Shown: piece after piece, positions 12,001 to 18,000 of the stretch | Numbering within the stretch: position 1 is the stretch's first letter | How the letters are laid out: every line of letters starts with the position of its first letter | Source of the DNA: Escherichia coli | GTDB taxonomy: Bacteria > Pseudomonadota > Gammaproteobacteria > Enterobacterales > Enterobacteriaceae | NCBI RefSeq assembly: GCF_002854065.1 | Contig: NZ_CP024147.1 | DNA length: 64,000 nucleotides | Direction: 5' to 3' (one strand) | Made by a program: the position numbers

Positions 12001-15000
12001 GCTGACAGTTTCCGCGACCGCCTATACCGTTACTGCGCAGGTAAAAAGTTCGGCGGGTAACGGCAATAACGCCAATATTAGCAACGGCACGGTGACGGTT
12101 AACGCGGCGATTGATTACACACCGACCTGGACTACCGCCAGCAAAACCACCGCCTGGGGGTTGACCTACGGCCTCGACTCGCACGGGATGTGGACGGTGC
12201 TGGCAAACCAGCAGGTAATGCAATCGACTGACCCACTCACCTGGTCGAAGACCGCGCTGACGCTGTATCAGAGCGGCAACAACTACGCCACCAGCTCCAT
12301 TGCCGATTACGACCGTAACGGCACGGGCGATCTGTTCATCACCCGTGATGACTACGGTACGGGCTATATTAACGGCTTTACCAATAACGGCGATGGCACC
12401 TTTTCCAGCGCTATTCAGGTCACCGTCGGCACCCTGACGTGGTACGGCTCGATTGTGGCATTTGATAAAGAGGGCGACGGCTATCTCGACTTCTGGATTG
12501 GCGACGCGGGCGGGCCGGACTCCAACACCTTCCTGTGGAACAACGCAGGTACGCTGGTAGGTAACTCCACCACGTCGAACAGCGGCGGTAGCGCCACGGT
12601 GGGCGGGGCGGTGACGGGGTATCTTTCGCTCAACGAAGGTTCTGGCGTCGATCTGAACAATGACGGCAGGATCGACCTGGTTCAGCACACCTACAACCTG
12701 AACAACTATTACACGCTGTCTTCGCTCATCAACCAAGGGAATGGGACGTTTGTCTGGGGGCAGAACACCACCAATACCTTCCTGAGCGGGGCGGGCAGTG
12801 GCGCTATGAGCAGCAGCGTTTCCATGACCTGGGCCGATTTCGATGGTGACGGCGATATGGATCTCTTCCTGCCCGCCAGCCAGGGAAGAGCTAACTACGG
12901 CTCGCTGTTATTCAACACCAACGGCGTACTGGGTAGCCCGGTGGCGGTGGGCGCAACGGCAACCACCTACGCCAGCCAGTTTAGCCTGGCGGTGGACTGG
13001 AACCATGACGGCCTGATGGATATCGCCCGTATCGCCCAGACCGGGCAGTCGTATCTTTACACCAACGTTGGTGGTGCCAGCAACTGGACGCAATCGGCCC
13101 TCGGCGGCAGCCAGAGCGGTACCACCAGCGGCGTGGCGGCAATGGACTACGACTGGGACGGCGCGGTGGATGTGCTGGTGACCAAACAGTCGGGCAGCGT
13201 GTTCCTGATCCGCAACACCAACACGGTGAGCTACGGCACTTCGCTACACCTGCGCATCACCGATCCCAACGGCATTAACGTCTATTACGGCAATACCGTG
13301 AAGCTGTACAACTCGGCGGGAGTGCTGGTCGCCACGCAAATCATCAACCCGCAGTCGGGTATGGGGGTTAACGACACCTCGGCGCTGGTCAACTTCTACG
13401 GGCTGAATGCCGGAGAAACCTACAACGCGGTGCTGATCAAATCCACCGGCACCACCGCCAGCAATATCGACCAGACGGTCAACACCAGCTGGGGCGGTTT
13501 ACAGGCCACCGATGCCACTCACGCTTACGACCTCAGCGCCGAAGCGGGTACCGCGAGCAACAACGGCAAGTTCGTCGGCACCGGTTATAACGACACCTTC
13601 TTTGCCACCGCAGGCACCGATACCTACGACGGTTCCGGCGGCTGGGTGTACAGCTCCGGCACCGGAACGTGGCTGGCGAACGGCGGGATGGACGTGGTTG
13701 ATTTCCGGCTTTCGACGGTGGGCGTGACGGCTAACTTAAGCAGCACCGCCGCGCAGGCCACCGGTTTTAACACCTCGACATTTACCAATATCGAAGGCAT
13801 TTCCGGATCGAATTTTAACGACACTCTGACCGGCAGCAGCGGCGATAACCAACTGGAAGGGCGCGGCGGCAACGACACGCTCAACATCGGCAACGGCGGC
13901 CACGACACCTTGCTCTATAAACTGCTCAACGCCAGCGACGCCACTGGCGGCAACGGTTCGGATGTGGTGAATGGCTTTACGGTAGGCACCTGGGAAGGCA
14001 CTGCCGACACCGATCGTATTGATATCCGCGAGTTGTTGCAGGGCAGCGGCTACACCGGAAACGGCAAAGCCAGCTATGTCAACGGCGTGGCGACGCTGGA
14101 TGCGCAGGCCGGAAACATCGGTGACTTTGTCAAAGTCACCCAGAGCGGCAGCGACACCATCGTGCAGATCGACCGCGACGGCACGGGCGGCACTTTTGCG
14201 ACAACTAACGTGGTCACGCTGACGGGCGTGCACACCGACCTCGCCACTTTGCTGGCGAATCATCAGTTGATGGTGGTGTAGATAATGAAAAAAAATGCCC
14301 AGTCCGTGGAAGCCTGGCTGGAGGCGATGATCGCCGTGGCGCGCTATTATCGCCTTGATTTTTCTCAGGAGAATGTGCGCGCAACCGTCAACTGGGAGCG
14401 CGACAGCAAGCGGGAAGAGTTACTCACCGACATGGCGCGGCAGTTGGGAATGGGGTTACGGTTGGTGGAGTTTTCCGCCGATTCGCTTAACCCCTGGCGT
14501 CTGCCGCTGATCGCGGTGTTTGATAATCAGCAGATTGGCGTGATCACCCGTCGCGACAATCATGACAATATCAGCGTTCAGTTCAGCGGTGACGAAGGGC
14601 TGGAAACCACGCTTAACGTCGCGGATGTCGAGGATAAAATCGTTGAACTGGCGCTACTGCGCCCACTCAGCGCCATCCCTGACGCGCGGGTGGATGACTA
14701 TATTCGCCCGTATCAGGCGAACTGGTTCTGGAACCTCTCGCTAAAAGACTGGCGGCGCTATGGCGATATTATGCTGGCGTCACTGGTGGCGAACGTGCTG
14801 GCGCTGGCAGCGATGATTTTCTCGATGCAGGTTTACGACCGGGTGGTTCCGGCGCAATCGTACCCGACGCTATGGGTGCTGTTCGCCGGGGTGATGATGG
14901 CGATCCTGTTTGAGTTCTGTATGCGCATGGTGCGCACGCATCTTTCTGATGTGATCGGCAAGCGGGCGGATCTGCGTATTTCGGATCGCGTTTTTGGTCA

Positions 15001-18000
15001 CGCATTACGGCTGAAAAACAACGTGCGATCGAAATCCACCGGCTCGTTTATCTCGCAGATCCGCGAACTGGAATCGGTGCGGGAGCTGATTACTTCCACC
15101 ACTATCGGCGCGGTGGCGGATCTGCCGTTCTTCCTGCTGTTTGTTTTTATTCTGTGGATGATCGGCGGCTGGCTGGTGCTGGTGGTTTTGCTGGCGCTGC
15201 CGTTGCTGGTGATCCCCGGCCTGCTGGTGCAACGCCCGCTGGCGCGGCTGGCGAACGAAGGAATGCGCGAGTCAGCGGTACGCAACGCTACGCTGGTGGA
15301 AGCCGTGCAGTCGATTGAAGATATTAAACTGCTGCGCGCCGAACAGCGTTTCCAGAATCAGTGGAATCACACCAACGATGTGGCCTCGTCCATCAGCATG
15401 AAGCAACGTTTTCTCACCGGGCTACTGCTCACCTGGACCCAGGAAGTGCAATCCATCGTCTACGTCGTGGTGCTGTTGGTGGGCTGCTTTATGGTGATGA
15501 ACGGCGACATGACCACCGGCGCACTGGTCGGGACGACGATCCTGGCTTCGCGCACCATCGCGCCGCTGTCGCAGATATCCGGCGTGCTCTCGCGCTGGCA
15601 GCAGGCGAAAGTAGCACGTAACGGCCTTGATGAACTGATGAAGCGTCCCGTGGATCAGCCGGAACACGGCAAACTGGTGCATAAAGCGGTGCTGCACGGT
15701 AATTATCAGTTCAGCAACGCGGTGTTTTATTACGACGAAGAAGAGAAGATTGCCGATGTAGCGATTGGCAAACTCAACATTCAGGCTGGTGAGAAAATCG
15801 CCATTCTCGGGCGCAACGGCGCGGGTAAATCGACGCTACTGCAAATGCTCGCCGGAATGCGTATCGCCCAGCAGGGGCAGGTGTTGCTGGATAACATCAG
15901 TATCGGGCAGCTTGATCCGGCGGATCTGCGGCGCGACATGGGGCTACTCAGCCAGACCGGGCGACTGTTCTTTGGTTCGCTGCGGGAAAACCTCACCATG
16001 GGGATGCCGGAAGCCAGCGATGAAGATATCGAACGCGCGTTAACCCTCAGCGGAGCGCTGCCCTTTGTGCAGAAGCAGAAAAACGGTCTCAACTACATGA
16101 TTCAGGAAGGAGGATTTGGCCTCTCTGGTGGCCAGCGGCAAACGCTGCTGCTGGCGCGGCTACTCATCTCTCAACCCAATATCGTGCTGCTCGACGAACC
16201 CAGCGCCTCGCTGGACGAAATGGCGGAAGCGTATTTAATCGAACAACTGAAACAGTGGATTGGGCATCGCACGCTGGTCATCGCCACTCACCGCACGGCG
16301 ATGCTGCAACTGGTGGACCGCATTATCGTGATGGATCAGGGGCGGATTGTAATGGACGGCGCGAAAGAGGCCATTTTGCGTGAACAGGGCGAACCCACGG
16401 CGCGACGGGTGGTGTTGCAGGAAAAGAATAAGGGGTCTGCCGCATGAACGGACAACTGCAATATAACCGTGGCCTGACTGAACCCCGCCTGCCGCGTTCG
16501 GCGTTGGCGGTACGCGTTACTGCTGTGATGCTGTTTTGTTTTCTTGGCTGGGCGTGGTACTTCCAGCTTGATGAAGTCACCACCGGCAGCGGCACGGTAG
16601 AACCTTCCGGGCGCGAACAGGTGGTGCAGTCGCTGGAAGGCGGAATTCTGTATCATCTGAACGTGAAAGTTGGCGATATAGTTGAACAGGGCCAGCCGCT
16701 GGCGCAGCTTAACCGCACTAAAACGGAATCCGACGTCCAGGAAGCGATGTCGCGGCTGTACGCTGCGCTGGCAACCTCGGCGCGGCTGCGGGCGGAAGTG
16801 AGCAATAAACCGCTGGTCTTCCCTGACGAACTGAATAAATTCCCCGAACTTATCGAGTCGGAAACGGCGTTGTACAACACTCGCCGCGACGGGTTGAACA
16901 AAGCCACCACCGGGCTGACGCAGGGGAGCAGTCTGGTCAATCGCGAACTGGCGATGACCCAGTCGCTGGTAAAACAGGGGGCAGCGAGCAGCGTCGAAGT
17001 ACTGCGCCTGCAACGCCAGGTCAATGAACTGGAAAACAAACTTAGCGACGTGCGCACGCAATACTACGTACAGGCGCGGGAAGAGTTAGCGAAAGCCAAT
17101 GCGGAAGTGGAAACCCAGCGTTCGGTGATCCGTGGGCGTGAAGACTCCCTCACCAGGCTCAACTTTACTGCGCCAGTTCGTGGCATTGTTCAGGATATTG
17201 ACGTCACCACAGTTGGCGGCGTCATTGCCCCCGGTGGTAAACTGATGACCATCGTGCCGCTGGATGAGCAACTGCTGATTGAGGCAAAAATCTCCCCGCG
17301 CGATGTGGCGTTTATCCATCCGGGGCAAAAATCGCTGGTGAAAATAACTGCCTACGATTACTCCATCTACGGCGGCCTGCCGGGAGAAGTAGGGGTGATA
17401 TCACCAGACACCGTGCAGGATGAAGTGCGGCGCGATGTTTATTACTATCGGGTGTACATTCGCACTTTCAGCAACCATCTGGAAAACAAAAGCAAACAGC
17501 AGTTTCCGATATTCCCCGGTATGGTGGCGACGGTCGATATCCGCACCGGCAAAAAAAGCGTGCTGGATTATCTGTTGAAACCCTTTAACAAAGCACAGGA
17601 GGCGTTGCGCGAACGATGAACATTAGCGATGTAGCAAAAATTACCGGCCTGACCAGCAAAGCCATTCGCTTCTATGAAGAGAAGGGGCTGGTGACGCCGC
17701 CGATGCGCAGCGAAAATGGTTATCGAACCTACACGCAGCAGCATCTCAACGAATTGACCTTACTGCGCCAGGCGCGCCAGGTGGGCTTTAACCTGGAAGA
17801 GAGCGGCGAGCTGGTGAATCTGTTTAACGACCCGCAGCGTCACAGTGCCGACGTCAAACGTCGTACGCTGGAGAAGGTGGCGGAGATCGAACGGCATATC
17901 GAAGAACTGCAATCTATGCGCAACCAGCTACTGGCGCTGGCGAATGCCTGCCCCGGTGATGACAGCGCCGACTGCCCGATTATCGAAAATCTCTCCGGCT

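Follow-up and report, generated by a model that had tools for sequence, protein, structure and literature searches.

An LssB-type ABC exporter with a predicted non-proteolytic C39-like domain in the O-island 28 adhesin secretion locus of Escherichia coli

Based on profile searches, structure modelling and genome comparison, we found that the ABC and HlyD genes lying 3' of a giant adhesin gene in a 64,000-nt stretch of E. coli DNA (contig NZ_CP024147.1; hereafter the window) very probably encode the inner-membrane side of a dedicated type I secretion system (T1SS) that belongs to the accessory island OI-28. The locus is already known as the O-island 28 secretion system, and the interpretation of the N-terminal part of the ABC protein as a C39-like domain (CLD) is right but ordinary. 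The significance is mostly one of annotation, as this virulence-associated system for adhesin secretion in E. coli has been published. What is gained is the location of the outer-membrane gene upstream, the placement of the exporter in the LssB subfamily and a family-wide record of CLD degeneracy at the Cys, His and Asp positions. For work on OI-28, the intact single adhesin gene outside O157, the A7/A8 tract, the cueR overlap and the K-12 scar may be of help. The features are listed in Table 1.

Table 1. Positions of the features within the 64-kb window, with the basis of each assignment
Feature	Position	Strand	Basis
Giant adhesin "SiiEA" (T1SS substrate), last 14.3 kb of the gene	1..14281	+	ORF open at the 5' edge of the window
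3-nt spacer ATA, adhesin stop to ABC start	14282..14284	+	sequence
T1SS ABC permease/ATPase, LssB subfamily (hlyB28 / z0634 homologue), 720 aa	14285..16447	+	TIGR03375
N-terminal C39-like domain, predicted non-proteolytic	14285..14764	+	AF2 model, Foldseek, alignments
A8 homopolymer right after the ABC start codon, of varying length between lineages	14288..14295	+	
HlyD-family T1SS periplasmic adaptor (hlyD28 / z0635 homologue), 391 aa	16444..17619	+	TIGR01843
Adaptor 3' end that survives as a frameshifted remnant 5' of cueR in island-less (K-12-like) E. coli	17520..17619	+	
cueR, Cu(I)-responsive MerR-type regulator, core gene	17616..18023	+	NF007590

The island and its gene string

The locus occupies the same chromosomal site as OI-28 and holds orthologues of z0608, z0609-z0615, z0634 and z0635. 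The stretch from the ABC gene through the HlyD gene to cueR is about 97% identical in nucleotide sequence to that of O157:H7 and has the same neighbouring genes. OI-28 was characterised experimentally in EHEC O157:H7 in December 2025, when deletion of z0608 (tolC28), z0634 (hlyB28) or z0635 (hlyD28) was shown to lower adherence to Caco-2 cells and colonisation of mice, with complementation restoring both (PMC12758282). Activation of the island proceeds from a promoter region that lies upstream of tolC28 and is bound by RstA (PMC12758282). The readout of that study was adherence rather than export, and neither the CLD nor the cueR overlap is discussed in it (PMC12758282); SiiEA is presumably secreted directly by the OI-28 pump.

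The TAG stop of the adhesin gene (14279-14281) is followed by the spacer ATA and the ATG of the ABC gene at 14285, while the ABC stop and the adaptor start share an ATGA at 16444-16447 and so overlap by 4 nt. The 3-nt gap and the 4-nt overlap that had been noted earlier from the sequence were thereby confirmed. The adhesin/ABC/HlyD spacing is identical in five other non-O157 E. coli strains, and the ABC/HlyD overlap is kept in the distant homologous loci L003, L005 and L006. The tight spacing is thus real and conserved, which would be consistent with translational coupling of the three genes. A Shine-Dalgarno-like run, GGTGGTG, lies 7-13 nt 5' of the ABC ATG, inside the adhesin gene. A simple promoter and terminator scan of positions 13500-18400 revealed no boundary between the genes and no cueR promoter in excess of what shuffled sequence gives. 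At the homopolymer next to the ABC start, O157:H7 strain Z1831 has A7, and PGAP then places the start at a GTG 21 nt downstream, giving a protein of 713 aa.

The adaptor scored 326 bits with TIGR01843 (cut-off 208.65) and also matched HlyD_3, HlyD_D23 and Biotin_lipoyl_2, which identifies it as a HlyD-family adaptor with an N-terminal membrane anchor and the lipoyl, hairpin and beta-barrel parts. It aligned to E. coli HlyD (8DCK_C) at residues 39-213/77-250 and 213-391/302-478, and also to LipC (5NEN); compared with HlyD it lacks about 38 aa at the cytoplasmic N terminus and about 50 aa of the helical hairpin. The next gene scored 308 bits with NF007590 (cut-off 244) and is annotated as cueR in all genomes examined. 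A second 4-nt ATGA overlap, absent from the earlier note, joins the adaptor stop to the cueR start, so that cueR is physically the last cistron of the string. In island-less genomes, matching sequence starts at query position 3236 (window position 17520). The scar that they carry is 98 nt long (a PGAP pseudogene at positions 3002-3099 of L002), and its alignment revealed a deletion junction and a 1-nt deletion.

The giant adhesin

The part of the adhesin ORF that lies in the window is uninterrupted. About 5.3 kb of the gene lie 5' of the window, and its product is 6527 aa long in the near-identical genome of E. coli strain CUWW06, where it is annotated as the full-length BapA-related adhesin SiiEA (the NCBI name) and its N terminus matches NF047714 and the BapA prefix domain. 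The C-terminal 760 aa contain FG-GAP repeats and a T1SS C-terminal target domain (TIGR03661, 35.7 bits; cut-off 17.6), as well as RTX nonapeptide repeats (PF00353, 25.6 bits; cut-off 23). When the translation was read by eye, no Gly-Gly leader was present at the N terminus. A TAAG motif in the adhesin is a candidate LapG site. The gene is frameshifted in some carriers of the island and annotated as a pseudogene in O157:H7.

The ABC protein and its N-terminal domain

The ABC protein scored 836.5 bits with the LssB subfamily profile TIGR03375 over residues 10-701 of 720 (cut-off 693.1). With the HlyB subfamily profile TIGR01846 it reached 388.9 bits, below the cut-off of 725.55. By these profile scores it is LssB-type, related to HlyB yet outside the HlyB subfamily. 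Pfam placed ABC_membrane (PF00664) at residues 162-423 and ABC_tran (PF00005) at 497-640, and all ATPase motifs are intact: Walker A GRNGAGKS (509), LSGGQ (613), Walker B IVLLDE (633) and the H-loop ATHR (665-670). The protein thus has a functional ABC core, with a six-helix membrane domain and the motifs of the nucleotide-binding domain.

The earlier note had estimated an N-terminal extension of about 160 residues without any Cys. The estimate is accurate, as the Pfam membrane domain begins at residue 162, and the translation bears out the absence of Cys: residues 1-160 contain none and a single His, at position 93, and the only Cys residues of the protein (212 and 401) both lie in the membrane domain. 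The lack of Cys over 160 aa is by itself unremarkable (about 17% expected at 1.1% Cys); it is the residue in the catalytic column that counts. The domain consists of a core of approximately residues 1-127, followed by a linker and an elbow helix up to about residue 160.

A search against the Peptidase_C39 profile (PF03412), which had been proposed earlier, gave a weak match of 15.5-18.8 bits, under the gathering score of 22, and phmmer with the 160-aa domain against PDB sequences gave a marginal match to the PCAT1 peptidase domain (E=0.04). As these matches did not settle the fold by sequence alone, it was the structure model and Foldseek that settled it. The AlphaFold2 model had a pLDDT of 90.3, and its top Foldseek matches were all C39 or C39-like (3B79, 7N87, 3ZUA, 6MPZ and 3K8U; E 2e-8 to 1e-5). 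The best solved matches were the Vibrio C39-like domain 3B79 (E=1.9e-8, TM 0.76), the PCAT1 peptidase domain and the HlyB CLD, with E=7e-8 for 7N87 and E=2.6e-6, TM 0.67 for 3ZUA. A domain other than C39 was ruled out by the model and Foldseek, as the best PDB matches were all C39 or C39-like.

In the phmmer/HMMER and MAFFT alignments, Ala10 stands in the catalytic Cys column (PCAT1 Cys21, HlyB Tyr9), Ile84 aligns with HlyB His83 and Gly85 with PCAT1 His99, and Ser101/Gly102 occupy the Asp column. The catalytic Cys, His and Asp columns are all replaced, which argues for a non-proteolytic CLD. The model and alignments support a C39 papain-like fold that, as predicted, could not act as a cysteine peptidase. 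This agrees with the earlier proposal of a non-proteolytic CLD, and neither a different domain nor a Cys/His dyad on realignment, the two outcomes named beforehand as speaking against that proposal, was found. The comparison with HlyB drawn in the same proposal held for the absence of proteolysis; however, the subfamily is LssB, and degeneration of the CLD has gone further than in HlyB, as the His83/Trp77 pair is missing too, with Ile84 and Val78 in those columns.

Homologues for the alignment were collected by an exhaustive search of representatives with the full ABC protein; a word-indexed search with the N-terminal domain (165 aa) yielded nothing but short pieces, for the most part of E. 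coli and its close relatives, and was too shallow for modelling. Among 56 family representatives (50% clustering), one had Cys in the Cys column and one had His in the columns of query residues 84/85 taken jointly, so the catalytic dyad is lost family-wide. Trp occurred in none of the 56 in the column of HlyB Trp77, and His in one of the 56 in that of His83. In about one third of the relatives, the columns that correspond to query residues 14 and 85 contain Cys that is not catalytic.

An inactive protease-like domain is usual for pumps of this kind, and a CLD on the exporter of an RTX-type cargo is the textbook rule. CLD-bearing exporters accompany large RTX cargoes, the HlyB CLD has a tethering role and the His83/Trp77 stacking pair of HlyB is a possible CLD hallmark (PMC8277102). 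By analogy, the CLD of the OI-28 ABC protein would have a docking role; lacking that pair, it may bind its substrate in a different mode from HlyB.

The outer-membrane partner

The earlier note had seen no TolC-like gene downstream and had left the partner either upstream of the window or as the chromosomal tolC. No TolC-like gene was found anywhere in the 64-kb window, where tblastn with the TolC-family protein of the island gave only a chance match (E=1.8), and none is listed downstream in the syntenic annotated region of CUWW06, so the observation stands. The window is 99.975% identical to the CUWW06 chromosome over 24.4 kb, and the order there is ybaT, TolC-family gene, siiEA, ABC, HlyD, cueR. 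Inspection of the upstream sequence, as had been suggested, thus located the gene directly 5' of the adhesin gene, at a distance of 101 nt and about 5.4 kb before the start of the window, and the upstream alternative proved to be the correct one. Its product scored 416 bits with TIGR01844 (cut-off 225). The tripartite T1SS is therefore complete with a dedicated outer-membrane factor, whose gene was read in the near-identical CUWW06 rather than in the window.

Alternative explanations

The fold leaves room for another reading of the N-terminal domain, namely an active C39 bacteriocin-processing peptidase in a pair that exports a small peptide with a double-glycine leader, and the peptidase domains of PCAT1, LahT and ComA are indeed among the best structural matches. 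Against this stand the lack of Cys in residues 1-160, the Ala in the nucleophile column and the Ile/Gly in the His column. Moreover, the bacteriocin_ABC profile TIGR01193 stayed at 253 bits (cut-off 524) and matched only from residue 161, and the substrate encoded next to the pair, an adhesin of 6527 aa, has its T1SS signal at the C terminus and no N-terminal Gly-Gly leader. With the catalytic Cys and His both absent and the PF03412 gathering score not reached, we regard an active peptidase as refuted by the sequence and give it practically no chance. That the pump uses the housekeeping chromosomal TolC instead of a dedicated channel is unlikely, to a lesser degree. It would agree with a window devoid of TolC-like genes and with the listing of Legionella LssBD together with TolC as LssBD-TolC (PMC8277102), but the TolC-family gene next to the adhesin gene in CUWW06 argues for a dedicated channel, as does the finding that in O157:H7 deletion of tolC28 alone cuts adherence and colonisation, which complementation restores (PMC12758282).

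The island is carried by about 18% of complete E. coli genomes, and its absence from the other 82% or so, where the 98-nt scar is left, together with the frameshifted adhesin genes of some carriers, could suggest that in the strain of the window the ABC/HlyD pair is a decaying remnant without current function. Both ORFs are intact, however, the ATPase motifs are complete, the adhesin ORF is uninterrupted in the window and the gene is intact in CUWW06, and 959 genomes carry the pair at 95-100% conservation. Pseudogenisation of the pair is ruled out by the intact ORFs and motifs, and we consider the remnant reading very unlikely.

Proposed mechanism

For a working adhesin exporter, the mechanism would be as follows. 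The ABC dimer would recognise the adhesin in its unfolded state by the RTX region and the C-terminal signal, which stays uncleaved, and the CLD, without catalytic Cys, His and Asp, would serve as a substrate-docking or chaperoning module, as shown for the CLD of HlyB, instead of a leader peptidase. The adaptor would bridge to the island's own TolC-family channel, ATP hydrolysis would drive the adhesin out with its C terminus first, and extracellular Ca2+ would fold the exported Ca2+-binding Ig-repeat/RTX adhesin. Two further ideas are speculative, and each has in our opinion a small chance of being correct. With the catalytic triad and the HlyB-type His/Trp stacking pair both lost, the LssB-type CLD may dock giant adhesins in a functionally distinct way, for example by handling their BapA-prefix/retention end and not the RTX region. 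As a second idea, since cueR overlaps by 4 nt with the end of an adhesin operon activated by RstA/Ca2+, expression of the copper regulator might track adhesin export in carriers of the island.

Comparison with known systems

In its type of cargo and exporter, the predicted export of a giant Ig-repeat adhesin by a dedicated T1SS resembles Salmonella SPI-4 SiiCDF/SiiE and BapA/BapBCD, and the adhesin N terminus matches the BapA prefix domain. The gene order differs from both the SPI-4 locus (siiABCDEF) and the BapA locus (bapABCD), and no SiiAB-like proton-channel genes were seen adjoining the ABC/HlyD pair.

Like the LssB/LssD-type T1SS (TIGR03375; Legionella LssBD), the ABC protein passes the subfamily cut-off, and the best structural match of its N-terminal domain is from Vibrio parahaemolyticus (3B79). 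In relatives, too, the exporter goes together with an adaptor of about 390-400 aa and a giant protein encoded upstream, and related loci keep the string giant protein, (OEP), ABC, HlyD. The place of the TolC-family gene varies: in L003-L005 it separates the giant protein from the ABC gene, and in E. coli it precedes the adhesin gene. In contrast to the relatives with a non-catalytic Cys, the N-terminal domain here has no Cys at all.

The ABC protein is collinear with HlyB (7SGR, 8DCK; CLD 3ZUA) over residues 10-700 (E=1e-80), and the system shares with HlyB/HlyD/TolC an N-terminal C39-like domain with the nucleophile Cys replaced and a HlyD-type adaptor. Unlike in HlyB, the counterparts of His83 and Trp77 are Ile and Val, and the adaptor, at 391 aa, is shorter than HlyD (478 aa) in its cytoplasmic tail and hairpin. 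The haemolysin exporter also differs in that the system described here has a dedicated TolC-family gene and an adhesin, rather than a pore-forming toxin, as its substrate.

The closest known system is the OI-28 T1SS of EHEC O157:H7, with tolC28 (z0608), rtxA28/rtxB28 (z0609/z0615), hlyB28 (z0634) and hlyD28 (z0635), which lies at the same site between ybaT and cueR and has the same gene order. In the lineage of the window the adhesin is one uninterrupted gene, whereas in O157 it is split or pseudogenised, and the ABC start is an ATG 3 nt past the adhesin stop with an A8 tract, in contrast to A7 and a GTG 21 nt further on in O157.

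Gene identities and operon layout

Based on profile searches with curated cut-offs, we identified the 720-aa protein as an LssB-type T1SS permease/ATPase (TIGR03375, 836.5 bits against a cut-off of 693.1). It failed the HlyB-type model (388.9 bits, cut-off 725.6) and did not reach the cut-off of the bacteriocin cleavage/export model. All its ATPase motifs (Walker A, signature, Walker B and H-loop) are undamaged. The 391-aa protein passed the HlyD-family T1SS adaptor model TIGR01843 (326 bits, cut-off 209) and the 135-aa protein is CueR (NF007590, 308 bits, cut-off 244). The C-terminal 760 aa encoded by the large adhesin ORF contain FG-GAP repeats, RTX nonapeptide repeats and the T1SS C-terminal target domain TIGR03661, which makes its product a T1SS substrate.

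The adhesin and ABC genes are separated by three nucleotides (TAG-ATA-ATG) and the ABC and adaptor ORFs overlap by ATGA, just as an earlier note on this DNA had read these junctions, while a second ATGA joins the adaptor ORF to cueR. The spacer and both overlaps were kept in all five diverse non-O157 strains examined, an arrangement in which translation of the genes may be coupled.

Features of the export locus (nucleotide positions in the window; residues of the 720-aa ABC protein)
Feature	Position	Strand	Basis or remark
Adhesin ORF	ends 14281, open at window 5' end	+	ORF reading
ABC ORF, 720 aa	14285-16447	+	ORF reading
A8 homopolymer	14288-14295	+	immediately after ABC ATG
Adaptor ORF, 391 aa	16444-17619	+	ORF reading
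cueR ORF, 135 aa	17616-18023	+	ORF reading
ABC_membrane	residues 162-423		
ABC_tran	residues 497-640		
Nucleophile column	Ala10		PCAT1 Cys21 / HlyB Tyr9
Trp column	Val78		HlyB Trp77
His column	Ile84		HlyB His83
His column	Gly85		PCAT1 His99
Asp column	Ser101/Gly102		

The N-terminal domain of the ABC protein

Residues 1-160 of the ABC protein contain no cysteine, the only two in the protein being at positions 212 and 401, and His93 is the sole histidine among the first 200 residues. The earlier note had described a cysteine-free N-terminal extension of about 160 residues, which is confirmed and agrees with the start of ABC_membrane. By itself a 160-aa stretch without cysteine is statistically unremarkable (about 17% expected), and the decisive evidence comes from the fold and from the catalytic columns more than from the absence of cysteine. 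The Peptidase_C39 model of Pfam did match the domain, but below its gathering score (18.8 bits versus 22), and the phmmer match to the PCAT1 peptidase domain was also weak (E=0.04). As this sequence evidence was weak, diverse relatives were gathered in an exhaustive representative search, 45 N-terminal segments were aligned and the domain was modelled.

The structure was predicted confidently (mean pLDDT 90.3, pTM 0.77), and the best 25 Foldseek matches in the PDB were all C39 or C39-like domains. These included the C39-like domain of Vibrio parahaemolyticus (3B79; E=1.9e-8, TM 0.76), the HlyB C39-like domain (CLD; 3ZUA, TM 0.67), the PCAT1 peptidase domain (7N87), HlyB in 7SGR and 8DCK, LahT (6MPZ) and ComA (3K8U). 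The catalytic columns, read from HMMER and MAFFT alignments that agreed with each other, have lost their catalytic residues in the ABC protein. Among 56 family representatives the nucleophile column holds Cys in one, the two His columns pooled hold His once, and the Trp column never holds Trp. A C39 fold with catalytic columns that lack Cys and His makes the domain a non-proteolytic CLD, and the same is true of the family as a whole; the interpretation given in the earlier note, a non-proteolytic domain as in HlyB, is thereby supported.

About one third of the LssB-type representatives have Cys jointly at the columns of Ala14 (PCAT1 Cys25) and Gly85. These paired cysteines seem to co-vary and to be non-catalytic, and the ABC protein in the window has small residues at both columns.

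The outer membrane partner

No TolC-like sequence was detected in the 64-kb window, either by tblastn (best E=1.8) or by an annotation check, as the earlier note had seen for the downstream side. That note had left two alternatives for the outer membrane partner, a gene upstream of the window or the chromosomal tolC. E. coli strain CUWW06 carries the ABC-HlyD-cueR stretch at 100% identity, window positions 1-24400 match this strain at 99.975% identity without gaps, and the remainder is syntenic, IS elements excepted. The CUWW06 annotation runs glsA, ybaT, TolC-family outer membrane protein, SiiEA ('BapA-related adhesin SiiEA', 6527 aa), T1SS permease/ATPase, HlyD-family adaptor and cueR. The TolC-family protein passed TIGR01844 (416 bits, cut-off 225) and its gene stops 101 nt short of the adhesin start and so lies about 5.4-6.8 kb 5' of window position 1. 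With none in the window and this gene present in a near-identical genome, the upstream alternative appears to be the correct one, and the chromosomal tolC is disfavoured.

The SiiEA N-terminus in CUWW06 matches the SiiEA and BapA-prefix models. In this adhesin N-terminus (L001 18273-18700), some 5.3 kb 5' of the window, the BapA prefix-like domain is followed by 'TAAG' at residues 97-100, a sequence resembling the dialanine motif at which LapG cleaves LapA-type adhesins, and by a Gly/Ala-rich hydrophobic stretch at residues 129-153. The sole large differences from CUWW06 across the window, at 37116-38421 and 61573-62379, coincide with IS5 and IS1 of CUWW06, in the allantoin and sfm/fim regions.

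Distribution and the cueR junction

The ABC-HlyD-cueR stretch was present over at least 80% of its length, at 95-100% identity, in 959 of 5426 complete E. coli genomes, and the others matched only from query position 3236 (window 17520) onwards. In a K-12-like genome lacking the island (L002 3002-3099), about 98 nt lie between ybaT and cueR, directly upstream of cueR, labelled by PGAP as a frameshifted gene fragment with its N-terminus missing. This remnant is the 3' end of the adaptor gene (window 17520-17619), and the alignment makes a deletion junction and a 1-nt deletion visible. Remnant and junction suggest that the island-less state arose by a deletion from just after ybaT into the adaptor gene, and the native upstream region of cueR would be the adaptor gene 3' end. 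A secretion-gene tail thus serves as the cueR upstream region, with an ATGA overlap at the adaptor stop.

The closest 50%-cluster representatives from outside E. coli (55% and 49% identity) are embedded in a gene string of the same kind, made up of a giant protein, in some cases an OEP gene, the ABC gene and, overlapping the latter by 4 nt, the gene of an adaptor 393-399 aa long.

Strain variation

The A8 tract was found in all five non-O157 strains examined. The O157:H7 strain Z1831 has A7 instead, which closes the ATG frame early, and PGAP starts the ABC gene at a GTG 21 nt further on, so that the protein has 713 aa; the tract could be a lineage marker or prone to slippage. The siiEA gene of Z1831 (L008 1-19997) is labelled a pseudogene on account of a frameshift and an internal stop, in keeping with its division into z0609 and z0615, treated as two separate RTX adhesins (PMC12758282). 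In the strains examined, the adhesin gene is between 17.2 and 20.8 kb long. Between cueR and ybbJ, a low-GC insert (about 44%) carries a small YadA-family trimeric autotransporter adhesin gene (window 18735-19751, minus strand) with an in-frame TAG at codon 134; the CUWW06 copy is intact and has Gln at this codon.

Mechanism and comparison with known systems

The locus is O-island 28 (OI-28) of EHEC O157:H7, in which the genes are named tolC28 (z0608), rtxA28/rtxB28 (z0609/z0615), hlyB28 (z0634) and hlyD28 (z0635) (PMC12758282, December 2025). The need for each component was shown in O157: each single deletion in O157:H7 lowered Caco-2 adherence and mouse colonisation, and complementation worked for all three T1SS genes (PMC12758282). 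A box bound by RstA lies upstream of tolC28, and Ca2+ raises expression (PMC12758282). We found the RstA box TAATTCAAATTACC also upstream of the TolC-family gene in CUWW06. Neither the C39/CLD domain nor cueR is mentioned in PMC12758282.

What the evidence supports best is a standard CLD-type T1SS, in which an ABC dimer, the adaptor and the island TolC-family channel would export SiiEA directly. The unfolded adhesin would leave C-terminus first through this assembly, the CLD may act as a docking or chaperoning module, of which docking is what we infer for the ABC protein here, and extracellular Ca2+ would fold the RTX and Ig-like repeats.

The HlyB CLD retains His83 stacked on Trp77 (PMC8277102), whereas the CLD of the ABC protein is more degenerate and lacks the equivalents of both. 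The 391-aa adaptor can be aligned to E. coli HlyD (8DCK_C) but is shorter by about 38 residues in the cytoplasmic N-terminus and by about 50 in the helical hairpin. The system has already been described, and its features are those expected for the CLD-type T1SS class.
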